From a virus, in IMG/VR virus record IMGVR_UViG_3300046542_000168, positions 32,001-96,000 of that record: DNA of 64,000 nucleotides. One strand, 5' to 3'. Positions 1,741-62,997 of this stretch are shown piece after piece (position 1 is the stretch's first letter; each line of letters starts with the position of its first letter). A program made the translations under genes and the position numbers. Under the pieces are notes generated by a model that ran no database searches, was not told where the DNA came from, and saw nothing but the letters and a program-made list of their open reading frames with translations.

Positions 1741-2171
1741 ACGACTTCCACTATTGTGCAGATTCCTTCTTTACCATCTTTGATGCGTTGCTCAAGTACT
1801 GACAACTTCTTCTCGGTTTTACTATCCAACATTTTGCGAATTTTTGAGCTGTACTTTGTGAAGAGCACACCTCCGACTACGACAAGTAGCCACACCCAGC
1901 CGACAAGACAAGGGACGATAGCGCTCTTCAGTATGGTGAAGCCGAAGATTGCTGCAATCGGTACGTGGAGCATGCAGAAAGCGAAGTAGATGGCGAATAC
2001 AAGTACAAGCAATCCCAGGGCGATGTATAACAGTGTCTGGATTACGCTACGCAGTGTAGTGCGGATGTAGGTGCAAGTTGTGAACTTACGGCCTCGTGCT
2101 CGATCACGGAACGAGCTGCCCTGAAGTTGCGAGTTGAATCGGTAATGCCAGGAACGTTTGGAGATTTGCAT
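1737..2171 (-). CDS. Hypothetical membrane protein (2 TM)
   Basis: Two hydrophobic segments; GAAGG SD; ATGA overlap with next gene. Confidence 0.75.
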   Translation of the reverse strand: MQISKRSWHYRFNSQLQGSSFRDRARGRKFTTCTYIRTTLRSVIQTLLYIALGLLVLVFAIYFAFCMLHVPIAAIFGFTILKSAIVPCLVGWVWLLVVVGGVLFTKYSSKIRKMLDSKTEKKLSVLEQRIKDGKEGICTIVEVV

Positions 2172-2662
2172 GTTTCACCTTCTCGGTCGTATACATGGAC
2201 TTGAAAGCCACGGGTAATAAGTTGACGCTCAATCATCGGCAGTACTTCGTCTTGCCAGGAAGCCCCGCCCAGTCCGCAACCCAGTCGCGGGAGGCAAATA
2301 GCTAGGCCGAGTTCACCGCCCAGGAAGAAGTGGCGAGCGAATGCAGACATTGCTGTTTCTAGTTCAGCAGGGAGTGTGTACTTTCTCCCGTCCCGTCCAT
2401 ATGTGTATTGCCCATACAGGTTAACTATGTACCCATATAACTTGTCGATCCCGACGTAGCTATATGTACCCAGCTTGTCTGGATCACCCTTCTGTGTCTT
2501 GCAGTCTACTGCGTATGCTTCGGGGAATTCCTCTCGGATGGCTTTCGCCACCCCAGAGTTCATCGTGTTGAAACAGTTTGCTTGGTGCAGCAGGGCGAAG
2601 TATTGGCCAGTCTTAAATGCTTCAACTACACAGCCGGTGCGGTACTCAATCATCCTGCTCAA
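2042..2662 (-). CDS. Macro-domain (Appr-1-p processing / ADP-ribose-binding) protein
   Basis: HQANCFNTMNSGVAKAI, IVNLYGQY, PRLGCGLGGASW motifs. Confidence 0.88.
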   Translation of the reverse strand: MSRMIEYRTGCVVEAFKTGQYFALLHQANCFNTMNSGVAKAIREEFPEAYAVDCKTQKGDPDKLGTYSYVGIDKLYGYIVNLYGQYTYGRDGRKYTLPAELETAMSAFARHFFLGGELGLAICLPRLGCGLGGASWQDEVLPMIERQLITRGFQVHVYDREGETCKSPNVPGITDSTRNFRAARSVIEHEAVSSQLAPTSALHCVA

Positions 2663-3734
2663 CCCCGATCAGTTTCCACACGTTACCGTCTTTCTCGAAG
2701 TTCCAGTACTGCTTGATGCGAATAGCACCAGTACCATCGTCCAACTTAGCCTCAAACAATACGGAACCACGCAACTTGCCTTGTTCTACTACAACGTCGA
2801 TTGTTCGGTGCTCAAACATCAAGACCTTCGACGGAGCGGACAAACACTCTTCTACCGGCAAGTACTTGGTGTTAGCTTCTACCCAGGTAGCGTCATCGCT
2901 GTGCTTCTGGAATTCGTAGAAGATTGCCATCGCTCTTGAATCGAGGTCATCAAACTCTGATGGACCTTTAGGCGACAGGTCGAACTTTTCCTTGATCTTC
3001 CCTTCTACTCGGTCACGTACTTCTTTTTTACGACCAAGAGTTACCAACTTGTAAATCCCATAACCGATTGCACCAACAACGCTCAAGAAGAAAGCCAGCT
3101 TGATGACGAACCACAGGGCACCCCACAGAGCGCCGAAGAACGAGAATCCCGATTCCTGAGGTTGCTGTTGCTGCACGATCACTACTGGCTGTTGCTGCTG
3201 TTGCGATTGTGGCTGGTAGTATTGCTGTGGTGCCGCCTGGGGAGCCTGCTGTACGGGTGCTGCTACCGGTTGGCCCTGCTGGTTGAAGTACTGCCCAGGG
3301 TATTGCGGGTGGGTAAACATGCCAGCATGACCGGGGCTGCTAATCAGTGCGGTAATTGCACTTGCGGCCAAGATCCCGCCACCAACGCCTGCGGCAGTTA
3401 CACCGATGTCCCGCATGGTGGAGCTTTGGCGCGGCTGGTTGTACGAGTTGCTACGGTAGTTGTTATCGCTGTAACCGCTGTTGTAGTTGCTCTTGTAGCC
3501 ACTGTTGTTACTGCTGCCAGAGCTGTAGCTTGAGCTTGAGCTACTAGACGAGTACGAAGGCGTCTTGTAAGTGGTAGCCGGTTTACTATACGAAGTAGTA
3601 GCTGGCCGACTGTAAGAGCGGGAAACACCGCTAGAACCACGCGAACCACCAAACGCCGCAAAAGTGACATCAGTAAAAACGACCATACCCATCGCAAGCA
3701 GCGGTACAAACAACTTCCTCATTTTCATATCCAT
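2646..3734 (-). CDS. Membrane protein with signal peptide, low-complexity linker and Tim44-like C-terminal domain
   Basis: Signal peptide, GGSRG/S/Q-rich region, TM helix, C-terminal QYWNFEKDGNVWKLIGVEQ typical of bacterial Tim44-like proteins. Confidence 0.7.
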   Translation of the reverse strand: MDMKMRKLFVPLLAMGMVVFTDVTFAAFGGSRGSSGVSRSYSRPATTSYSKPATTYKTPSYSSSSSSSSYSSGSSNNSGYKSNYNSGYSDNNYRSNSYNQPRQSSTMRDIGVTAAGVGGGILAASAITALISSPGHAGMFTHPQYPGQYFNQQGQPVAAPVQQAPQAAPQQYYQPQSQQQQQPVVIVQQQQPQESGFSFFGALWGALWFVIKLAFFLSVVGAIGYGIYKLVTLGRKKEVRDRVEGKIKEKFDLSPKGPSEFDDLDSRAMAIFYEFQKHSDDATWVEANTKYLPVEECLSAPSKVLMFEHRTIDVVVEQGKLRGSVLFEAKLDDGTGAIRIKQYWNFEKDGNVWKLIGVEQDD

Positions 3735-13256: not shown

Positions 13257-13398
13257 TAACAATGAGAACCAGGGTACTGGTTGAGTAGCAGCCCATGGAG
13301 CCGCCAAAGGCGCTGGGCCCGGTTCATTGTTGTACTGTACGCACTGGCCAGCGTACTTCGCGTTTACGGTAGAGGTCGCAAACCGCTTTATTTTCCCT

Positions 13399-13475
13399 AC
13401 TGGTATAGTTCAACTGGAAAGAGCATCCGCCTTCTAAGTGGTTAGTTGGGGGTTCGAATCCCTCTACCAGTGCCA
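13399..13475 (+). tRNA. tRNA-Arg(TCT)
   Basis: Cloverleaf, CTTCTAA loop, CCA. Confidence 0.92.
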
Positions 13476-54641: not shown

Positions 54642-55946
54642 ATGAACTTTATTAAGAAAGCAGGTATCGGTATTGCAGCCGGTGCCTTGGTACTGATCGG
54701 CACATTCAATAGTGTATTCGTATACAACGAAGCCGGTTATCAAACTCACATTCGTACAATCACGGGTGAAGAGAAAGTAGTTACCGAAGTTGGTTATGCC
54801 ACTAAGTGGTTCGGTAAGGCCACGCCCTGGAAGCAGGCACAAACCCTCCAGTTCTCCATCGTTAAAGAAGGTGAAACAAGCCGTGAGGTTGATGACGGCG
54901 TAGGGATCGACAACTACCGCGTTACCTTCCTGGGCAACGTTGATGGTGTTGTGGAAGCTTCCACACGATTCCGTATGCCCCAGGGCGAACAGTTCCTGAA
55001 GATTGCTCGTGAGTATCGCACTCCAGACAACTTCATGCAGACTGCTGTATTGCCAGCAGTGAAAGAGACTCTGCAAACTACAGCGTCCCTGATGACTGCC
55101 GATGAATACTTCGCTGGTAGCCGCTCTGAGTTTAGTTCGAACTTCGATGACCAACTTCGAAATGGCCAGTTCGCAGTTAAACGTAAGGAAGTTCAACAAG
55201 TAATTGAAACCAATCGTAGCGAAGGTGACAAGCTTGTTTCCGGTGCTGGTATTGACGGTGAACAGAAACGTACAGCGTTCGTAACTGAGAAAGAAACTGA
55301 CGACAAGGGCCGTGAAGTTCGCAAGTCCCAGGTCTTCGTTGGTATGGGTGTAGACGTTGTAGAGGCTCGTGTCCCTAACATCCTGCCGAACCCTCAGTTC
55401 CTGGCTCGCATGGTCAAGGTGCAATCGGCCCAGGCGGATCTGGTAGTCGCTCGTGCGGATCGTCTGAAAGAGGAAGAGGCGAAGCTGCTGGCCATCGCTC
55501 GTGGTCAACGCAACGTCGAAGAGAAGCGCCAAGAAACCTTGCGTAATCAGGTCGAGCAGACCACCAACGCAGAAACCACCAAGCTCCTGGCGATCACCGC
55601 TGCTAAGCAGGCTGAAGAGTCGGCAGCCATCTCTAAGCGTACCTCCGTCGAGCTGCTGGCAAAGGCTGAGATTGACGCCAAGGCGACCAAGACCACTGCT
55701 GATGCTGAGGCGTATGCGAAAAAGGCTCTGATCCTCGCTGACGGCGCTCTGACGCAGAAACTGGCTACCCTGGAGAACATCAACAGCGTGTGGGCCCAGG
55801 CTGCTGCTAACGCCCCTGTACCGAGCGTGATGATGGGTAATGGTGGTGGTCAAGGTTCTAGCCGTCAGAGTGAGATTGGTGAACTAATGTCGATCATGGC
55901 TGCAAAGGCTGCGAAAGACTTGTCGGTTGATCTTTCCACTAAGTAA
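54642..55946 (+). CDS. SPFH/band-7 (flotillin-like) membrane protein
   Basis: N-terminal TM, band-7-like region, long EA/AK coiled coil. Confidence 0.85.
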   Translation: MNFIKKAGIGIAAGALVLIGTFNSVFVYNEAGYQTHIRTITGEEKVVTEVGYATKWFGKATPWKQAQTLQFSIVKEGETSREVDDGVGIDNYRVTFLGNVDGVVEASTRFRMPQGEQFLKIAREYRTPDNFMQTAVLPAVKETLQTTASLMTADEYFAGSRSEFSSNFDDQLRNGQFAVKRKEVQQVIETNRSEGDKLVSGAGIDGEQKRTAFVTEKETDDKGREVRKSQVFVGMGVDVVEARVPNILPNPQFLARMVKVQSAQADLVVARADRLKEEEAKLLAIARGQRNVEEKRQETLRNQVEQTTNAETTKLLAITAAKQAEESAAISKRTSVELLAKAEIDAKATKTTADAEAYAKKALILADGALTQKLATLENINSVWAQAAANAPVPSVMMGNGGGQGSSRQSEIGELMSIMAAKAAKDLSVDLSTK

Positions 55947-56480: not shown

Positions 56481-56635
56481 AACGGGCAGAGCTAAGTTAC
56501 TGTTTTCGCTGATGAAATAATTCATCTAGTTTCCCTTCGACAACCCACCGAACAGGCGGATTGATCCCGTAAAAAGTTGTATCGAAGGGGGGCGAATCAG
56601 TAGACATCCTAGGCTGGTAAGACCTATAATAGGGT

Positions 56636-56748
56636 CTGCTGAGTCGAGAATCCCAGGCGGCTAAACCAGGTATTCCCCTCGACTCCAGAACAGGTGGGTT
56701 GGTATCCCAGCCGGTTCACTTCAAGGCCCCTCTTCGTGAGGGGCTTTG
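56636..56748 (+). ncRNA. Putative sRNA with its own promoter and terminator
   Basis: TAGACA-18 bp-TATAAT (56601-30); GAGTCGAG/CTCGACTC stem; GCCCCTC/GAGGGGC-TTT terminator. Confidence 0.5.
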
Positions 56749-57177
56749 TCGTTTCTGGGGCAGAGGTTAGTCCCGTTCGGAACACTTCGCAATACCCCAT
56801 CGTAAATAACCTTTTTCTTGACAATCAGCTCTGACTGGCGTAGAGAGCTGCGGCACGACGGATTGGCCACCCCAGCGAAGCGCCAGGGTGGACGATGCGT
56901 TGGGACGTAGCCGACAAGCGAAGCGCGTCAGTGTCCCAGGCACCGCGTTCCACCCCGCTAAAACACCCCCTATAAGATAAGAGCTTTTCCGAACTCCCGG
57001 TTTTATTACCTTTCCCCGATTTTTCATACCGTTAAAGCGTATGAACACTTCCTTTTAAAATTATGACTTGTACCTCTTAAAGGTATAAAAGATAATGGCA
57101 AACGGAGGGTGAAAATAAGCATCCTCTAGTACCTTGATTTAGAAGATTTTATCGATCACTAGGGGAAGGCGAACGCC

Positions 57178-57675
57178 ATGGCTAGCGGCAAGAAAACGGT
57201 TAAAAATCGTACAGAAATGACCGTCACCGATCACACGACTGGGGAGGCTCTATCGAGTGAAAAAACCGTCACGTACAGAGTCCCGAGAGAGCCGGACTTT
57301 GTAAAGGTGTACACCGGGGCCTTTAAGGAGGTAGTCACAAAGAAGGGTTGCCATCTGGCGATGTTTATGCTTCTGGTTGACAAGATGGGGTATGAGAATG
57401 AAATCGGCCTGACCCCGGCCGGTCGTGTCAGGATCTGCGAAGCCCTGGGTATCCAGGCACAGACCTTCCGAAACCATTTGAATGACTTGCTGGAGCGCGA
57501 TGTTCTCCGTCGAACTAGTCACGGAGAGTTCATAGTAAACCCGACGTATATTGCCAGGGGTGAGTTCGAGAAAATTCTGCCCAGGATAGAGGCGTACAAT
57601 AAGATCGGGAGGGTGAAAACTAAGAAGGGTCGGGCCCCGAAGCCTAAAGAATCCCTGGAAGAGTCAACTAATTGA
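57178..57675 (+). CDS. RepL-like plasmid replication/maintenance protein (wHTH)
   Basis: EPDFVKVY, M.YENEI, HTH segment, FIVNPTYIARG. Confidence 0.72.
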   Translation: MASGKKTVKNRTEMTVTDHTTGEALSSEKTVTYRVPREPDFVKVYTGAFKEVVTKKGCHLAMFMLLVDKMGYENEIGLTPAGRVRICEALGIQAQTFRNHLNDLLERDVLRRTSHGEFIVNPTYIARGEFEKILPRIEAYNKIGRVKTKKGRAPKPKESLEESTN

Positions 57676-57681
57676 TACAAG

Positions 57682-57708
57682 AAAAGGGCCGAAAGGCCCT
57701 TTTTATTT
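57682..57708. terminator. Bidirectional terminator
   Basis: AAAAGGGCC-GAAA-GGCCCTTTTT. Confidence 0.8.
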
Positions 57709-57778
57709 GCCCGAAATAAGGGGCTAAAACAACTAAAGGGGCCATATGGCCCCTTGCTATATACGACTTTTTACTGCC

Positions 57779-58372
57779 CTACTGGGGTGGCTGGATAAAT
57801 CCATGACTAGTCAGCCACATATCCAGGGCCTCGGTCATAATGGCTTTCTGTGACTTCTTAGTAAACATCCCAGCCAGTTTCAACAACTGGGCGCGACGGG
57901 GATCTAATGGGGTGCTGACGTTACACTCCTTTAGAAACTCCGGGTTGAGTCCCCCTGTTTCCATCATTCCAGTTAGCATAGCAGCCATAGCCGCCATTGG
58001 ATTCTGAGGTGCATCGCTCACTGGTGCAGCTTCCTGTACTGGTTGCGGTTGAGTGGGTGCAGGCTCTACTACCTGGGCAACTGGTGCAGGTTCCGCTACT
58101 TGCTGCGGTTGAACTGGCGTTGGCTGTGGTGCTGCAACTGGTGCAGGGACAACTTCTTCAGCCTGGGCGATTTCAGTCTGTGCAACTAACACAGGCTGCG
58201 GGGCTGGCTCTTCTGTTACCTGGGGCTGAGCAACTACCGGCTCTTGTACCTGGGCTGCACCTACCGCCGAGATGTTATTCACCGGGGTCGGGTTCGTAAG
58301 CATATCTTGAAGAGATAGGCGATCAGCGGCACGGTCGGCGGCGCGATCTGTTCGAGTTTTCTTGGCGCTCAT
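57779..58372 (-). CDS. ParA partner (ParG-like): Pro/Gln-rich linker plus C-terminal ribbon-helix-helix
   Basis: C-terminus NVSTPLDPRRAQLLKLAGMFTKKSQKAIMTEALDMWL; lies downstream of parA. Confidence 0.65.
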   Translation of the reverse strand: MSAKKTRTDRAADRAADRLSLQDMLTNPTPVNNISAVGAAQVQEPVVAQPQVTEEPAPQPVLVAQTEIAQAEEVVPAPVAAPQPTPVQPQQVAEPAPVAQVVEPAPTQPQPVQEAAPVSDAPQNPMAAMAAMLTGMMETGGLNPEFLKECNVSTPLDPRRAQLLKLAGMFTKKSQKAIMTEALDMWLTSHGFIQPPQ

Positions 58373-58409
58373 AATTGCATACCTGCTTAATTATTCAACC
58401 ACTTCTTTA

Positions 58410-58760
58410 AGTGGCCGCGTGATGACGTGGTTGAGCCCTCACGTCACTGATGCAGCGCTTACCTGGGCAAGCGGTCACTATAGCAACCACTCCCCTGCGT
58501 AACCCCTCACGCGATTAGATGCCTAACTGACTGATTCGTCAAGCGATCAACCACGCAAGTGACCATTCAAGTAAGCGGACACTCGGTCAATTAGCCGAGT
58601 CATCACGCGGGTGATGAATCAATCGTTCAAGCAATTGATGGATCAATGGACCGATTGAACGATGGATCAATGAAGCCATTGATCCATCGGATGTATATAC
58701 AACCCATGGGTCAATGGATCACTCGTTCAAGCAATTGATTGATCACTCGTTTGCTTGGTC
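58410..58760. repeat. Centromere-like low-complexity tract between parA and the RHH gene
   Basis: Tetramer mosaic; repeated GGATCAATG, CGTTCAAGCAATTGAT, GATCACTCGTT. Confidence 0.6.
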
Positions 58761-58762
58761 AG

Positions 58763-59542
58763 TCACTTCGCCGCCTGCTTGCCTGACTGGTCATCCAGTT
58801 TGATGCTTGCGTGCTTGCTCGGCTTCTTCACCACCTTTGCCTTGCCCACTTCTTCATTAGTAAGTGGGTCGATGATTACTGGGTTTTCGACATGAATGCC
58901 CAGCTCCATCAGGATGCAGTCGGTTAGGGCGGCAATCTCCCTGGCACCCTTATTACGCTTATCAATCTCGGCCAGGGTGCTACCAGTTCTCAGACAGTTC
59001 ACGAAACCTGCCTTGTAGTGGATGGTAGGGCCAAGCTTCCCGGCAGACGCCAGGGCAATCACTGCATCAGTTGCAATGTTGGTGGTCGGATGTACTTCGT
59101 TCAGTACGAACAGCCGGGGAGTAGTGATTTCTTTCGAAGTGAGGTCGCTCAACGACTTGACCATCGACCACAGGTCGAAGTAGCTAGCCTTCGAAGGCAT
59201 AACCAACAGGTCAGCAAGTTTGAGCACGTTGAAGATATCGCTGTGGCCGAAACCTGGGGTGTCGATCACCAGGAAATCCAGGCCCCCCGCTTCCAGCTTC
59301 GGGATTACTGCTTCTAGCTGATCGATGCCGATAGCCAGCAACTCTGGGTCGCCCAACTCGCGCTTGTCCAACCATGTAGTGGTGTTCGCAGTGGGGTCGA
59401 TGTCCATCATGCCAACGTGGTAGCCCTTCGATGCCAGGGTGCCGCCGAGTTGAACGCTGATGGTGGACTTACCACAGCCGCCCTTCTGGTTGGTGACACA
59501 GATGATCTTGAGCTTACGCTTGAACTGACTAGGGAGTTGCAT
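58763..59542 (-). CDS. parA: ParA-family partition ATPase (short, type Ib-like)
   Basis: NQKGGCGKST deviant Walker A, DIDP, IDTPG. Confidence 0.93.
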   Translation of the reverse strand: MQLPSQFKRKLKIICVTNQKGGCGKSTISVQLGGTLASKGYHVGMMDIDPTANTTTWLDKRELGDPELLAIGIDQLEAVIPKLEAGGLDFLVIDTPGFGHSDIFNVLKLADLLVMPSKASYFDLWSMVKSLSDLTSKEITTPRLFVLNEVHPTTNIATDAVIALASAGKLGPTIHYKAGFVNCLRTGSTLAEIDKRNKGAREIAALTDCILMELGIHVENPVIIDPLTNEEVGKAKVVKKPSKHASIKLDDQSGKQAAK

Positions 59543-59559
59543 GGGTGCTTCCTCTATAT

Positions 59560-60390
59560 ATAGGTGCTCACTGAGTGAGCTATTCCTTGCTAGGTTGACC
59601 GCTTACGCGGCTGAGTGCGTCCGTGCGTGGGCAAGCTATCGATGGGGCAGTCGGTCACTCGCGTAACCCATCACTGCATCAATCGCCTGGGTAATCCCCT
59701 AAGTGCGCAATTCATCGAGCCATTCATTGGCCGATCATTTCACTGCTTGAGTCATCCATCGCTCGATTGGTCGGTAGCGTGCTTCTTCACTTAATCAATG
59801 CGTCAATCAAGTGCTTCCGCACGCAACCCATCAAGCAAGCCATTAGTCCATCCATCGCTTCCGTAAGCACTCACTGGCGCGATTCACCACTTACTTGGTC
59901 GTTCGCTTGCGTGAGTGACTGGTTACGCGGTGAAGCAACTACTGGCTTGCTCAACCACTCCCTCGCTCGACTATCTGATTGCCCGACCGATTAAGGCAGG
60001 AATCAATCAATGAGTCAGTCAACGAAGCAGTTGCTCGATCAACCGAGTCATCACTCGGTCAGGAACTCAATCACTTGCGCCCTTGAGGAACCATTTAAAC
60101 ACCCGCTCGATCCCTTGTCAAACTAATTGATAGCTTAAAGCCTTCATGAATTGATCGTGCGACTGACCGATAGATCGATAGGCTGATGAATTGAGTGACC
60201 AACCGATGGAGCGATGATTGACTGAAGTAATTGATATCTCCATTCCTGAAGCAAGCAATGCCGCACTGATGTGTGTGAGGCAATGATGACAGGACCGAAT
60301 GAACAAGCGTCCAATGGGTCAAGCAATTGATGGATCAATGGGTCGAGCGTTCAATGGGTCAATGGAACCATGGGATGTATATACAAGTAA
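59560..60390. repeat. Second centromere-like tract upstream of parA
   Basis: Tetramer mosaic; shares 23-bp and 14-bp identical blocks with 58627-58702. Confidence 0.6.
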
Positions 60391-60579
60391 CGGTCCTACG
60401 CCGATTCTGACCAGTTCACAGGAGCTAAGCCCCTGCCAGGGCACCCAGGGTCGGCATACCGCTATCCAGGCCAATACCAGGGCAGATACGCAACGTCGCT
60501 ACAGGGGGCTCATAGGGGCTTCAGGCGGTAAATTCGCAGGAGGGTTGCAAGGATGGGAGGAAGTGGATAGAGTGCCGTC

Positions 60580-60697
60580 CGTCGAACGTTGCTGACCCTC
60601 ATAATCTCCCCGGAATATGTTGGTCCGTTGCTTCCTTGCTCTGATCCGTGATTGGTGGCGTTCGATACTAAGCCGCTCCCTCGTGAGCGGCTTTTTC
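60580..60697 (+). ncRNA. Putative sRNA 1
   Basis: TTGCAA-17-TAGAGT promoter (60545-73); GTCGAACG/CGTTCGAT stem; AGCCGCTC/GAGCGGCT-TTTT terminator. Confidence 0.55.
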
Positions 60698-60822
60698 ATG
60701 CCCGCAATAATTGCCTCACAGGGGCTCTATCCCGCAAGGCCCATCGGTCAGATTGTCCTACACCTCAGATGAACGGTGCCATCACTCATTGCGTCAGGTG
60801 CCATCATTGGGTAAAATCCCTG

Positions 60823-60892
60823 GGTTGGTTGTACAGTTCGCCTACTCAGCAACAACATCGAGAAGCCGCCCACACCGGGGCGGCTTTTCTTT
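60823..60892 (+). ncRNA. Putative sRNA 2
   Basis: TTGCGT-17-TAAAAT promoter (60789-817); AAGCCGCCC/GGGCGGCTT-TTCTTT terminator. Confidence 0.45.
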
Positions 60893-60906
60893 ATCTGATG
60901 GAATGG

Positions 60907-60940
60907 CTGGACAGGCGAACAGTACTGTATATAATTACAG
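60907..60940 (+). promoter_or_regulatory. Tandem LexA (SOS) boxes overlapping a sigma70 promoter
   Basis: CTG-GACAGGCGAA-CAG (60907-22) and CTG-TATATAATTA-CAG (60925-40); TGGACA-16-TATAAT. Confidence 0.75.
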
Positions 60941-60941
60941 C

Positions 60942-61033
60942 GTTAACCTCGGTAGGGACTCGTCATCCCTTCACCAGTCTTAGGGTGGATTCGTCGTCCA
61001 CACTTTAGCCGCCTACCAGGGCGGCTTTTCTTT
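60942..61033 (+). ncRNA. Putative SOS-inducible sRNA 3
   Basis: Twin hairpins AGGGA-CTCGTCA-TCCCT and GTGGA-TTCGTCG-TCCAC, then AGCCGCC/GGCGGCT-TTTC terminator; no ORF start inside. Confidence 0.6.
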
Positions 61034-61111
61034 GCTCGATGGGGAAGGAGTAGAGGGAGGGGTAGAGCAGAAATGAAGAAGGGCCTCGATTGAGGCCCTT
61101 GCTTGTGTAGC

Positions 61112-61504
61112 TTATTCGTTGAGAGTGGCCCAACCTTTTACCGCTTCAACTCCCCACTTCTTCCTCCACTCATTGAGCACTGTGTGGTTGCCGTGAGAGC
61201 TAACAATTTTCTCGTTAGTGTGAGGATTTACCCAGGTCTTTGTGGGCCTTCCTCCCTCTGTTGTAGCTGCTGCCTTAGCTACCTTAGCTGCACCTGTAGC
61301 TTGAGCTTTCGGAGCCTTATAGTTCTCATCAAGGATCTGATTCACATCTACCAGGGAGCGAGAGTGCTTAGCTAGGAGAGCACGTAGCTCACTCTCGAAT
61401 ACCTGTAGCGACTTAAGCTCAGGGTCATCCTGAAGAGCATCCAGTTGAGCTTTAGCCGCAGCTAGGGCAGCTCGTGCGAGACGGAGTTGAACGATCTTGG
61501 ACAT
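61112..61504 (-). CDS. Second, divergent MvaT-family H-NS-like protein
   Basis: FESELRALLAKHSRSL, WVNPHTNEKIVSSHGNHTVLNEWRKKWG.EAVKGW. Confidence 0.85.
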   Translation of the reverse strand: MSKIVQLRLARAALAAAKAQLDALQDDPELKSLQVFESELRALLAKHSRSLVDVNQILDENYKAPKAQATGAAKVAKAAATTEGGRPTKTWVNPHTNEKIVSSHGNHTVLNEWRKKWGVEAVKGWATLNE

Positions 61505-61616
61505 ATAGCTCTCTTGCGTGATTGGTGGAAAGTCTTACACTAGCAGTGCGTTAAGTCGCGCACTATAAGCTCAAGTAGCTCGCAACGGAAGAGAGTACTC
61601 AAGCTTAAGCTCAAAA

Positions 61617-61727
61617 ATTCCATCACAGGGGCCTCTCAAAAACTCCATTACAGGGGGTACAGATTTCCTCACAGTGGGGTACTGAATTTCCCTACAGGGG
61701 CTAGCTGAGTTTCCTCACACGGGGTAA
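61617..61727 (+). repeat. Five degenerate direct repeats TTCC..ACAGGGG spaced 21-25 bp
   Basis: ACAG/ACAC cores at 61625, 61650, 61671, 61694, 61717. Confidence 0.7.
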
Positions 61728-61959
61728 GCTCGATCTACCCTGGCTCGATGCTGCATTGTGAGCGTCCCCATTCATTCCTGTCTTAGATAGGTAGCTAACT
61801 ATCGATTTACTTGCATAGCTAGCTATCGATTTAGTTGATTAGCTAACTAAGCATTTAGATGCATAGCTAACTAACTACCTGAATAGCGCCCACACTCCCC
61901 CCTTGAAGTCCGGTATCCGGCCCAGGCTGGCAGTGGCTCTGCCTGGGCTTACGTTCCCG

Positions 61960-61988
61960 CTAATACAGCATAGTCTATGCTGTATTAG
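61960..61988. promoter_or_regulatory. Perfect 14-bp inverted repeat with 1-nt spacer (operator-like)
   Basis: CTAATACAGCATAG-T-CTATGCTGTATTAG. Confidence 0.65.
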
Positions 61989-62139
61989 AGTCAGGGGCAA
62001 GCCCTGGGAGCATTATTTTTTAACCTGGCGCCCCTAGCTTTTAACCTGGCTCGATTCGCCTCTATATAGTCGGAATGTCCAGGGGGCTAGCCTGGGGCCT
62101 GGGCCTACCTGGGGAATGAAAAGAAAATGAAAAAACAGC

Positions 62140-62169
62140 TTTACAGCATGGGCCATGCTGCAATAGGAT
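62140..62169 (+). promoter_or_regulatory. sigma70-like promoter with an operator-like palindrome in the spacer
   Basis: TTTACA-18-TAGGAT, A-rich UP element, CAGCATGG-G-CCATGCTG. Confidence 0.6.
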
Positions 62170-62214: not shown

Positions 62215-62997
62215 ATGAAATACCGCATAGAAGTACAGCAAGTTTTCACGGCTCAAGGTTATGACCGTGGCGGGGAATGGTTGGCCCTGGGCGACAAGCC
62301 ACGCGGCAAGGCCGCTGCAATCGCCCTGATGGAAACTATCCAGGCCGCTAGTGGTTTGGAGCCTCCTTACCGCGTAGTCTCGGTTGACGCCCTGGGGGAT
62401 CGCGTGGAAGTGGCGAGGATCGAAAGCCCGCATAAACCGGCCCCTAAGTATGCAGTCGAAGTAACAGACGCCCAGGGCGAGAAACGCCAGGAATTCGAAT
62501 CGCTCCCCCTGGCTATGCAAATGTATACCGCTTGTGTTGACGGTGCCGAGAATGACCCACGCAAGGGCTATACCCGTCGTGTCGCCCTGGTCGGGATTGA
62601 GTCCGGCGATACTTACTATAAATGGGAGTATCTAGTCCCCCAGGCCCAGACCGGCGCTAATAAACGCCCTGAAGGGTTGACCGGCTCCCAGCTCGACTGG
62701 GCCTGTAAGCAGCCATGGTTCCACGCTTGCGAATACTTTAATGAGTTGTCGCGTAACTGGATTGTCTGGGCAAAGGAGGGGGATAAGGTTCACCCCTTTG
62801 CTGACTTTGCGGAGTTGCAAGCCTGGGCAAAGGCTAAAGAAGCCCAGGCGACTAAGCCGGTACTTTATCAAGTTTTCGAAAAGGCAACCGGGGAGGCAGT
62901 TGGCAAGAAGTATCATAATAGGAACGGCGCGGAGAATTATTGCGACGGGTTCCACCCCTACGCCCCCGGCTGTTATGAGGTAAGGCAAGTTCAATAA
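62215..62997 (+). CDS. Hypothetical early-type multidomain protein
   Basis: GGGGAG SD; follows the promoter. Confidence 0.75.
   Translation: MKYRIEVQQVFTAQGYDRGGEWLALGDKPRGKAAAIALMETIQAASGLEPPYRVVSVDALGDRVEVARIESPHKPAPKYAVEVTDAQGEKRQEFESLPLAMQMYTACVDGAENDPRKGYTRRVALVGIESGDTYYKWEYLVPQAQTGANKRPEGLTGSQLDWACKQPWFHACEYFNELSRNWIVWAKEGDKVHPFADFAELQAWAKAKEAQATKPVLYQVFEKATGEAVGKKYHNRNGAENYCDGFHPYAPGCYEVRQVQ

Follow-up and report, generated by a model that had tools for sequence, protein, structure and literature searches.

Phage P1, a myovirus without a DNA polymerase of its own, combines a RepL-family protein with a type Ia partition system (HTH ParB) and resolves dimers by means of a tyrosine recombinase that it encodes itself (Cre/lox). 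Its RepL serves lytic replication and not plasmid replication, the plasmid replicon being RepA/oriR. Phages N15, 186 and those of the Gifsy type have LexA-controlled antirepressor switches. The SSU5/pHCM2 group and the Acinetobacter AB group have genomes of about 100–110 kb, in which siphovirus virion genes and many DNA-metabolism genes occur alongside plasmid replication and partition genes, and phiSG1 is a suspected phage-plasmid (PMC7969092). Screens of phage-plasmids by Rep and Par genes also flag phages described as strictly virulent, e.g., the BigBertha/SPO1-like group (PMC7969092).

In the ParF-ParG system of TP228, a small ParA-type ATPase lacking an HTH is paired with a 76-aa protein whose N-terminal tail is basic and flexible and whose C-terminus forms an RHH-like domain. 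The parH/OF site of TP228 is built of about 20 degenerate boxes of 4 bp, which face either way and are separated by 4-bp spacers; it abuts the start of the ATPase gene, and is bound by ParG as operator and centromere alike (PMC3130281). MvaT homologues are known on Pseudomonas plasmids (PMC7074111, PMC7273181), including the full-length Pmr of pCAR1; a 2020 review lists phage-borne homologues of H-NS and Lsr2 and no phage MvaT (PMC7273181, PMC4138198, PMC7074111).

The element and its relatives

The window, a 64,000-nucleotide stretch, is part of a 107-kb soil phage genome (G000), and the region considered here occupies 56.6–61.9 kb of the window. The sequence-only reading placed a plasmid-type maintenance region inside a siphovirus with virulent-type accessory genes, and both parts are borne out. 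The siphovirus assignment follows from the major tail protein, tape measure and J-like central fibre; the genome encodes its own replisome (PolA, primase-helicase) and genes of nucleotide and NAD metabolism. The supposedly full tRNA set comprises 18 tRNAs for 17 amino acids, with Met, His and Tyr absent. The 127-bp overlap of the record ends denotes a circular assembly only.

Another complete genome, recovered from a different sample (G001, 106.9 kb), carries RepL, the ParA/RHH pair, the phased arrays, MvaT and the LexA-box promoter in the same order, although RepL is 61%, ParA 34–36% and MvaT 37% identical between the two. ParA relatives (n = 13, 43–94% identity) lie on contigs of at most 108.7 kb, including at least five further contigs of 101–109 kb, and the ORFs of the module are intact in every relative. 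Synteny in the diverged G001, together with this ParA lineage, indicates that the module is an old family trait; the earlier proposal that a virulent backbone had acquired it is therefore not upheld. Judged by terminase, the cultured phages closest to the element are the Pseudomonas phages phiPMW, vB_PpS_SYP and vB_PsaM_M1 (42% identity). These resemble the element in genome size and in carrying tRNAs, but a comparison of the kind the sequence-only reading had proposed found ParA, RepL, MvaT and a tyrosine recombinase absent from all three. Another of its proposals, a circular replicon in a bacterial assembly, met with no close match in PLSDB or among GTDB representative genomes, and no host cell with the element was seen.

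Replication gene and candidate origin

56601..56756, + strand: promoter TAGACA-18-TATAAT (56601-56630), predicted structured sRNA of ~115 nt and intrinsic terminator (56722-56748); promoter/terminator scan
56850..57177, + strand: conserved non-coding block, candidate origin/control region; G001 alignment, composition profile and sequence reading
57178..57675, + strand: repL, RepL-family replication initiator, 165 aa; PF05732
57736..57755, − strand: hairpin terminator where the repL and RHH genes converge; terminator scan

The suggested RepL-like initiator is confirmed by PF05732 (39.5 bits, cut-off 20.3; profile positions 4–146 of 164). Homologues at ~30% identity are annotated as Rep of 2.3–3.5 kb plasmids, and a search of 5.8 billion proteins yielded just four further clusters. 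A tblastn search detected a relative in phiSG1; P1 was not among its matches.

The sRNA unit lies directly upstream of repL and shows 71–83% nucleotide conservation with G001. Its ORF matches are spread over several frames and both strands, a pattern that points to non-coding conservation. The consensus fold, built from the G000 and G001 sequences only, has 28 pairs, five of them compensatory. The adjoining block contains the motif AGCGAAGCGC twice (56874-56883 and 56917-56926), a stretch of 32% GC at 57000-57099, and a conserved repL promoter (TTGTAM-17-GAYAAT) followed by a near-invariant 40-nt leader. The block is a candidate origin; no DnaA boxes were found.

Putative partition genes and phased tracts

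57779..58372, − strand: candidate centromere-binding protein, RHH partner, 197 aa; profile, structure-model and homologue comparisons
58385..58800, strand not assigned: phased tract A, 416 bp, 104 tetramers, 79% RNNY in one register; period-4 and register scans
58763..59542, − strand: parA, small type Ib-like partition ATPase without N-terminal HTH, 259 aa; phrog_164, NF041546
59560..60400, strand not assigned: phased tract B, 840 bp, 210 tetramers, 65% RNNY; period-4 and register scans

The identification of ParA stands: it matches phrog_164 at E 3e-33, ParA_partition is its best family, its PDB matches are MipZ, Soj and ParF, and its translation shows the deviant Walker A KGGCGKST together with the Walker A′ and B motifs of partition ATPases. 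Its NF041546 score of 119 bits is below the equivalog cut-off of 180. Like its TP228 counterpart, it is a small HTH-less ATPase (PMC3130281).

The proposed RHH partner, a protein with a disordered tail, is moderately supported. A basic N-terminus (TRTxR conserved) is followed by a P/Q/A/V-rich linker of ~110 aa and a C-terminal domain of ~45 aa, for which profile and model comparisons point to a probable ribbon-helix-helix fold at scores below family thresholds. The C-terminal 73 aa match Pfam Antitox_RHH at E 0.006, the best three PDB profiles are all RHH proteins (E 0.03–0.08), and the AF2 model (helices at pLDDT 84–92) gives Arc, CopG and PutA as best Foldseek matches, with TM about 0.8 and E above 1. 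The Pfam ParG model does not match the partner, its best E being 0.32 in a homologue only. Stand-alone homologues of the C-terminal domain have 76–78 aa (P0007, P0012). The tail-plus-RHH layout is shared with ParG, which is far shorter than the present protein with its P/Q-rich linker.

The centromere-like tracts of the earlier description are strongly confirmed. Period-4 power in both is 10–19, compared with a genome median of 0.72, and 65–79% of tetramers conform to RNNY in a single unbroken register, compared with a median of 28%; such DNA occurs in the whole 107-kb genome only in these two tracts flanking parA. Tract A separates the RHH gene from parA, whose 3′ end it overlaps. In its core array (58614-58757), repeats of the 8-bp unit ATGGATCA surround the palindrome GTATATAC (58693-58700). 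Tract B begins 18 bp upstream of the parA start codon, and its distal core array (60306-60395) includes the same palindrome at 60377-60384. None of the ORFs within tract B is conserved in G001.

As in parH/OF, the boxes of the putative binding DNA are degenerate, 4 bp long and spaced by 4 bp, and they occur in either orientation; one array directly adjoins the start of parA, which hints at a double role as operator and centromere. In contrast to TP228, the tracts comprise about 100 and 210 tetramers and lie on either side of parA, one of them between parA and the partner gene. The boxes also differ from those of TP228, and between the relatives: they are GATC-like in G000, whereas the G001 counterpart of tract A (L072:11074-11310) has GGGT/ACCC boxes with A-rich spacers around the same core; tract B corresponds to L072:12141-12900. 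Different boxes at the same two positions, beside a ParA/RHH pair of 34–35% identity, form the pattern expected of co-evolving partition specificity.

MvaT-like silencer, predicted short RNAs and repeats

60545..61036, + strand: three tandem predicted promoter/short-RNA/terminator cassettes; promoter/terminator scan
61079..61100, − strand: mvaT terminator hairpin; terminator scan
61112..61504, − strand: mvaT-like xenogeneic silencer, full length, 130 aa; NF041859, PF22055, phrog_34034
61610..61873, strand not assigned: iteron-like repeats upstream of mvaT; repeat search, G001 comparison

The region holds 12 terminator-like sites (5.1 expected), among them those of the cassettes at 60670-60695, 60860-60889 and 61007-61026. 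The sRNAs of the sequence-only reading have consensus promoters, terminators and, in one case, a covarying fold, and remain predictions. Of its several LexA boxes one strong example stands, CTGTATATAATTACAG (60925-60940), which overlaps the strong, consensus-type promoter of the last cassette, TGGACA-16-TATAAT (60908-60935). Its positional counterpart in G001, CTGTACATCTACACAG (L072:13216-13231), likewise precedes the homologous terminator by about 85 nt. The promoter would drive a predicted ~90-nt RNA without an ORF; a search for the target of this RNA found none. A phage promoter overlapped by a host LexA box recalls N15, 186 and Gifsy, and the element, like them, has no self-cleaving CI-type repressor: the genome search for a CI-type repressor or S24 peptidase gave only a weak XRE-type HTH distant from the module. 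Since the transcript, unlike theirs, has no ORF, any antirepressor would be RNA.

The MvaT call is confirmed (NF041859, 92.3 bits, cut-off 75; PF22055, 28.1 bits, cut-off 27; phrog_34034, E 3e-16), with oligomerisation and DNA-binding domains both present. As with Pmr, a full-length MvaT-family protein is found on a large, probably extrachromosomal element, but the predicted silencer is phage-encoded here (PMC7273181, PMC4138198, PMC7074111). Upstream lie five 23–25-nt units with YACAGGGG (61610-61726) and 3.4 AT-rich 24-nt units (61783-61873). Repeats with YACAGGGG are also present in G001 (L072:14727-14810 and 13325-13400).

Xer-like recombinase

The window indeed has no integrase, as had been noted, but the genome encodes a tyrosine recombinase about 20 kb downstream of the module (G000:C1:2144-3076). 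It is XerC/D-like (TIGR02224, 280 bits; PDB XerD, 1e-47), and beside it are a dif-like palindrome and a host-type parS; G001 has a parS and a dif-like site whose XerD arm is perfect. Multimer resolution fits these features better than integration. An integrase/att site with chromosomal flanks had been named as contrary evidence: a recombinase and dif-like site were found, a host junction was not.

Proposed mechanism and alternatives

In our opinion, the element is probably a temperate phage-plasmid of a Pseudomonas-type host, and the region its module for maintenance in the plasmid state, so that the phage-plasmid part of the sequence-only interpretation remains the best reading. On this model, the genome would circularise upon infection, and RepL would fire the nearby origin with host replication proteins, the phage replisome being reserved for lytic growth. 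The RHH protein would coat the phased boxes on either side of parA, as ParG does on parH/OF, at once repressing parA and building a large partition complex; its basic N-terminus would stimulate ParA, and nucleoid-bound ParA would separate sister copies. The recombinase and dif-like site, 20 kb away, would resolve dimers, and the host-type parS may bring in host ParB. The MvaT paralogue may help silence 50%-GC phage DNA in a GC-rich host or, alternatively, spare the host MvaT pool, as Pmr does for pCAR1. DNA damage would release LexA from its promoter, and the short RNA would contribute to the lytic switch.

An essentially virulent or pseudolysogenic phage, in which the module provides a transient carrier state (for instance in starved rhizosphere cells) or positions and segregates replicating phage genomes while a long lytic cycle proceeds, with no stable repressed prophage, is unlikely, though the likeliest of the alternatives. 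The virulent-style backbone (own replisome, RNR, ThyX, NAD salvage, 18 tRNAs), the search that met no recognisable immunity repressor, the lytic habit of the closest cultured relatives (PMC5587285), the absence from PLSDB and GTDB representatives, and the Rep/Par-positive phages that behave as virulent (PMC7969092) all favour it. Apart from the lytic habit of the relatives, these points also count against plasmid residence, as do the RHH scores below family thresholds and the metagenomic origin of all records, in which virion and plasmid DNA are indistinguishable. Against the virulent reading, the Xer-type recombinase with its dif-like site, host parS, LexA-box promoter and silencer point to residence over many host generations, and the module is kept across diverged relatives. 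We regard it as improbable that the phased tracts and the ParA/RHH pair serve regulation or anti-defence in place of partition, whether through an RHH repressor acting on a giant operator or by diverting a DNA-binding protein of the host, with RepL as a second, lytic-phase initiator. Repression is the primary role of RHH proteins, the tracts are 5–10 times longer than any type Ib centromere described (cf. about 160 bp, PMC3130281), and 390 bp of tract separate parA from the RHH gene, unlike in a canonical operon. However, ParA has the full Walker set and the tracts are confined to its surroundings; moreover, the dual use of ParG sites as operator and centromere is the norm (PMC3130281), so that this explanation overlaps with the phage-plasmid one. 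The lytic role of RepL in P1 weighs on its side and against a plasmid replicon.

Equally improbable is an integrative temperate phage whose recombinase targets host dif or a tRNA/tmRNA gene, ParA and RepL acting for a short time only, prior to integration or once the genome has been excised. The recombinase itself, dif-like sites that could, as in IMEX elements, take the part of attP, and a tRNA-Ala/tmRNA-like cloverleaf 530 nt downstream of it in G000 are consistent with this. Yet the enzyme is of XerC/D and not lambda-Int type, and none of 190 TerL and 13 ParA relatives lies on a contig longer than about 109 kb. Contigs from three metagenomes read through the regions flanking the recombinase and show no host junction; in the source contig and in a wastewater contig of 47 kb, both sides are phage DNA. 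The cloverleaf is missing at the G001 flank, a comparison of its 28-nt 3′ end with metagenome contigs gave no match, and an integrated prophage would not need a complete replication and partition module. A plasmid-phage assembly chimera, conceivable for a metagenome assembly, or a decaying functionless remnant has next to no probability. It is refuted by an independent 67.6-kb Logan contig from the same sample that spans the module, genome end and recombinase region, by the gene order of G001, and by the five further ParA-carrying contigs of genome size; intact ORFs in all relatives likewise speak against it.

Significance

Similar to P1, this tailed phage joins a RepL-family protein to a predicted active partition system and a tyrosine recombinase that probably resolves dimers, but it differs from P1 in the features of virion, polymerase, ParB and recombinase given above. 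Its size, siphovirus virion genes and gene content resemble those of the SSU5/pHCM2 and AB groups, to which no close kinship was detected (best PLSDB TerL match 33% identical); its replicase family and host clade are different, and MvaT, Xer/dif, host parS and 18 tRNAs set it apart. Because the parts for replicating, partitioning and silencing a plasmid are all present and conserved, this virulent-looking 107-kb soil phage is most likely kept in its Pseudomonas-type host as a free plasmid. Phage-plasmids are a kind of element already known; the present phage would represent a new lineage among them.

Genome context and the proposed phage-plasmid assignment

The virus record in IMG/VR is 107,407 bp long, with the window being its bases 32001–96000, and its two ends share an exact overlap of 127 bp. 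An overlap of this length is expected when a k=127 assembly graph contains a circular path; it reflects circular assembly and not a physical terminal repeat. In a rhizosphere metagenome that is probably the source run, a 67.6-kb Logan contig crosses genome position 1 and extends 28 kb beyond; it thus independently joins the plasmid maintenance module (approximately 56.6–61.9 kb of the window), the genome “end” and the adjoining 20 kb. The phage carries siphovirus-type virion genes (portal, protease, major head, major tail, a 1203-aa tape measure and a 2155-aa J-like central fibre), replication and metabolism genes (family-A polymerase, primase-helicase, RNR, ThyX and a NAPRTase and PRPP-synthetase pair) and 18 tRNAs covering 17 amino acids.

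Phage-plasmids are defined as replicons that combine virion and lysis functions with plasmid replication and partition (PMC7969092). In the present case, one 107-kb record, assembled as a circle, encodes virion proteins as well as RepL and ParA, and in our opinion the element is probably a phage-plasmid. Together with the Xer-like recombinase region outside the window, the module makes up the standard low-copy plasmid tool-kit, i.e., a predicted initiator, active partition with its site, multimer resolution and a nucleoid-protein “stealth” gene, to which a predicted SOS-controlled promoter of the kind used by temperate phages is added. A MvaT-type stealth gene is also carried by the Pseudomonas plasmid pCAR1 (PMC7273181, PMC7074111).

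The closest cultured phages by terminase are the Pseudomonas phages phiPMW, vB_PpS_SYP and vB_PsaM_M1, at merely 42% identity. The sequence-only reading had proposed comparing the nearest phages for the module; ParA, RepL, MvaT and tyrosine recombinases are all missing from phiPMW, SYP and M1. By Megablast, the 5-kb region matches nothing in the phage and plasmid collections. A RepL search in IMG/VR retrieved one relative, G001, a genome of 106,866 bp that is complete according to CheckV and also has end repeats. Its gene order is that of the window (SPFH, 136-aa protein, RepL, RHH protein, ParA, MvaT), with identities of 61% for RepL, 35% for the RHH protein, 34–36% for ParA and 37% for MvaT. 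The best conserved gene of the module neighbourhood (73% identity) encodes the SPFH/Band-7 protein of 434 aa, located just upstream of the module at 54642–55946 (phrog_11908, E 1e-64).

Principal features of the module (window positions)
57178–57675, + strand, RepL-family protein
57779–58372, − strand, RHH-like partner protein, 197 aa
58385–58800, phased tract A
58763–59542, − strand, ParA, 259 aa
59560–60400, phased tract B
60925–60940, candidate LexA box
61112–61504, − strand, MvaT/MvaU family protein

The predicted replication initiator

Residues 5–151 of the RepL protein align to positions 4–146 of the 164-position PF05732 model (39.5 bits; cut-off 20.3), which places it within this family. 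Relatives with approximately 30% identity are annotated replication genes of 2.3–3.5 kb plasmids from E. coli, Klebsiella, Aeromonas and Bacillus; others occur in the Sodalis phage phiSG1 and a few other phages, and a collection of 5.8 billion proteins adds four clusters with 53–61% identity. The RepL profile gave chance matches only in PDB and, in a GTDB scan, found only an unrelated 2.4-kb MAG contig. With a full replisome encoded by the phage itself, the simplest role for a host-dependent initiator of this kind would be as the replicon of the plasmid state.

The 590 non-coding bp upstream of repL are conserved as well as repL itself in the comparison with G001. Scanning predicts in this block a consensus promoter, a structured RNA of approximately 115 nt with five compensatory pairs relative to G001, and a terminator; the block also contains two AGCGAAGCGC motifs, a stretch of 32% GC, and a conserved repL promoter and leader. 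There are no DnaA boxes within the module, and Rfam searches covering 52–64 kb and the G001 loci gave no hit in the module beyond chance level.

Putative partition proteins and phased tracts

ParA has a deviant Walker A motif (KGGCGKST) at residues 20–27 and no N-terminal DNA-binding domain, as is characteristic of the small ParAs of type Ib partition, which lack an HTH. Residues 13–208 align to positions 1–202 of the 203-position NF041546 model with 119 bits, below the equivalog cut-off of 180. Relatives in the 5.8-billion-protein collection form 13 clusters with 43–94% identity, five of which are on contigs of 101.6–108.7 kb and none on a longer one. One homologue, P0145, was looked for in IMG/VR as a third complete genome and was absent.

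The partner protein consists of a basic N-terminus, a long linker rich in P, Q, A and V, and a C-terminal region of 45–50 aa in which a strand is followed by a helix, a T-x-x-S turn and a second helix. An exhaustive HMMER search, for which the C-terminal 73 aa served as query, retrieved an orthologue of 199 aa and two stand-alone proteins (76 and 78 aa). The match to Antitox_RHH (E 0.006) is below the cut-off; the top PDB matches of a profile of the partner and its homologues are all RHH proteins (E 0.03–0.08). The AF2 model contains a confident helix pair (pLDDT 84–92), which Foldseek superimposes, with TM of approximately 0.8 and non-significant E-values, on Arc, CopG, the DNA-binding domain of PutA, TacA and NikR; for Arc, CopG and PutA the rmsd is 1.2–1.4 Å and E is above 1. 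The C-terminal fold is probably, though not provably, RHH, every one of these scores being below significance. The partner has no match to the ParG family PF09274, for which the best score (E 0.32, 11.6 bits; cut-off 21.4) came from the 78-aa homologue P0012. ESM Atlas searches with the flanking 136-aa and 260-aa proteins gave no lead.

Over half of the 56.5–62.2 kb region is non-coding, and it includes the only two stretches of their kind in 107 kb of DNA. Period-4 Fourier power reaches 10–19 in tracts A and B against a genome median of 0.72, and RNNY tetramers in a single unbroken register make up 79% of tract A and 65% of tract B (genome median 28%). Each tract has a denser core array of the 8-bp unit ATGGATCA around the palindrome GTATATAC. 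The parA start is separated by 18 bp from tract B, which lies upstream. Tract A occupies the 390 bp between the parA stop (58763) and the partner start (58372), so that the two genes do not form a compact operon; they are likewise split by a phased tract in G001. The tracts flank parA, are unique in the genome and keep their position in G001, as expected of the repeated-box cis-sites of type Ib systems. Their length is the most unusual single feature of the module. As a separate observation, tracts A (58385) and B (59561) share a 4-nt register across the 780-bp parA, i.e., the separation of their register origins is divisible by 4, for which the chance is 1 in 4.

The geometry of the phased boxes matches that of the ParG sites of TP228, where 4-bp boxes of degenerate sequence, in either orientation and spaced by 4 bp, serve as both operator and centromere (PMC3130281). 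In G001, the two tracts on either side of parA are 81–85% RNNY and are built of GGGT/ACCC boxes with A-rich 4-bp spacers around an unchanged GTATATAC core. Thus, the boxes differ between the genomes, and divergence is far greater in the partition proteins than in the proteins encoded next to them. This pattern would be expected of co-evolution between a centromere and its binding protein.

The predicted SOS-controlled promoter, MvaT and the search for a repressor

Three promoter/short-RNA/terminator units are predicted between tract B and mvaT. A candidate LexA box, CTGTATATAATTACAG, at 60925–60940 overlaps the last of these promoters, TGGACA-16-TATAAT. The box covers the TATAAT of this promoter, which matches the consensus at 11 of 12 positions, an arrangement that would fit the SOS regulon. 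The sequence-only reading had spoken of LexA boxes in the plural; only a single box is present, and the bare pattern occurs twice in the window against 1.5 expected, which is no enrichment. In G001, the only perfect CTGT-N8-ACAG box in 20 kb is at the homologous spot, approximately 85 nt before a terminator homologous to that of the window. A target search for the short RNAs, by duplex energy against all translation-initiation regions, produced no outlier and was uninformative, and no RNA data are listed among the runs containing the sequence. G001 has an extra 123-aa ORF (L072:13759–14130) between the short-RNA cassettes and mvaT, with no counterpart in the present genome by tblastn.

The MvaT protein passes the NF041859 equivalog model at full length, residues 1–126 aligning to positions 1–119 of 120 with 92.3 bits (cut-off 75). 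Upstream of mvaT are five repeats of 23–25 nt with YACAGGGG, followed by 3.4 AT-rich repeats of 24 nt. Beyond these observations, a perfect palindrome with 14-nt arms (CTAATACAGCATAG-T-CTATGCTGTATTAG; 61960–61988) and a related imperfect one (62142–62166), with the half-site ACAGCATRG in common, bracket the predicted promoter of a rightward operon that starts at 62215 and is divergent from mvaT. These palindromes are candidate operators of a repressor. Motifs of the CCCAGGT/ACCTGG type have many intergenic copies in both genomes (L004:1900–2080, a locus of the present genome; window 61890–62110; L072:13575–13600 and L072:14690–14720 in G001) and may be a phage-specific promoter or regulator motif.

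The search for a CI-type repressor was negative, PF00717 being absent and PF01381 giving just 20 bits far from the module; ten ORFs of the early region match no regulatory family in Pfam or PHROGs. The sole XRE-type HTH candidate of the genome (11008–11319; PF01381, 20.4 bits, under the cut-off) is at a divergent junction adjoining the tRNA region and is a weak candidate for a Cro/CI-like regulator.

The Xer-like recombinase and possible integration

A tyrosine recombinase is encoded at genome positions 2144–3076, outside the window; counted through the assembly junction, it is approximately 20 kb downstream of repL. It matches PF00589 (151 bits) and SAM_1, and its best solved structure is E. 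coli XerD (1e-47); its scores against the XerC and XerD equivalogs, TIGR02224 (279.7 bits; cut-off 335) and TIGR02225 (254 bits; cut-off 330), are below the cut-offs. Judged by these profiles, it is a Xer-like enzyme and not an orthologue of the host enzymes. The genome has a parS, TGTTTCACGTGGAACA, at 1580–1595, where none is expected by chance, and a palindromic dif-like site at 1739–1766. G001 encodes a Xer-like recombinase (45% identical) and has a perfect palindromic parS, AGTTCCACGTGGAACT, with a dif-like site approximately 230 nt beyond it, whose XerD arm, TTATGTTAAAT, is canonical.

Such an enzyme might alternatively serve integration. A 47-kb wastewater contig (approximately 90% identical) and contigs of the source run cross the recombinase region and carry phage DNA on either side of it; no att site with host flanks, i.e., no host junction, was found in the examined metagenome and Logan contigs, and none of 190 terminase relatives is on a metagenome or Logan contig longer than approximately 106 kb. 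Nothing positive speaks for integration through the Xer-like enzyme.

Two features near the recombinase should be noted in their own right. A 79-nt tRNA-like cloverleaf (L004:3604–3682, outside the window), 530 nt downstream of the recombinase, has an acceptor stem of 7 bp that includes G3:U70, terminates in ACCA and has an “anticodon” loop of 5 nt. It scores 24.7 bits (E 5e-7) against the Rfam tmRNA model, of which only the two ends are aligned, and folds with −35.5 kcal/mol (z −2.6); ARAGORN makes no call, and the recombinase flank of G001 lacks it. As a candidate attP it was rejected: the exact 28-mer is absent from metagenome contigs, and every match of the 3′ 20-mer is the 3′ end of a tRNA-Ala gene on an unrelated contig. 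The other feature is a 433-nt stretch, mostly a 133-aa ORF, with 94% nucleotide identity between L004:3931–4363 and L073:2356–2780 of G001, in genomes that are otherwise approximately 70% identical and whose adjacent recombinases share 45% of protein residues. This looks like recent exchange or a very strongly constrained gene.

Lifestyle and significance

Phage-plasmid calls based on Rep and Par genes include phages that behave as virulent (PMC7969092), and no isolate carrying the element was found in PLSDB or the GTDB representative genomes. Runs labelled “Organism A” were considered as isolate carriage and rejected, since with millions of contigs and approximately 8x depth they look like metagenomes. 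The module itself, with its initiator, partition genes and tracts in conserved order in two complete genomes, argues for the plasmid state. A more radical proposal, which we consider improbable, is a phage family with no protein immunity repressor at all. Plasmid lysogeny would then be held by chromatin-like silencing, in which the MvaT paralogue and the RHH protein, polymerised on more than 1.2 kb of phased boxes, would shut the AT-richer genome, and the LexA-controlled RNA of approximately 90 nt would act as an SOS-triggered anti-silencer. If true, a phage otherwise equipped as a large virulent one would have its lysis-lysogeny switch made of an RNA antirepressor and a xenogeneic silencer.

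Returning to the phage-plasmid assignment, there are precedents for phage-plasmids, RepL, type Ib partition and plasmid-borne MvaT alike. What is new is the lineage of approximately 105-kb tRNA-rich siphophages, from rhizosphere, wastewater and wetland samples, the combination of these parts on one genome and the extreme length of the phased tracts. The best-known phage-plasmids are enterobacterial (P1, N15, SSU5), and few are established in Pseudomonas; we know of no established Pseudomonas phage-plasmid with a T5-style load of 18 tRNAs, its own replisome, RNR and NAD salvage. The great length of the 4-bp-phased tracts makes them a natural system in which to ask what extent of DNA a ParG-type protein is able to coat. 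Should the plasmid state be real, the RepL replicon, the partition cassette and the LexA-controlled RNA would be compact parts for Pseudomonas genetics, virulent-looking gene content would be a poor guide to the lifestyle of soil phages, and a family of approximately 105-kb rhizosphere phages would join the vertically inherited gene pool of Pseudomonas.
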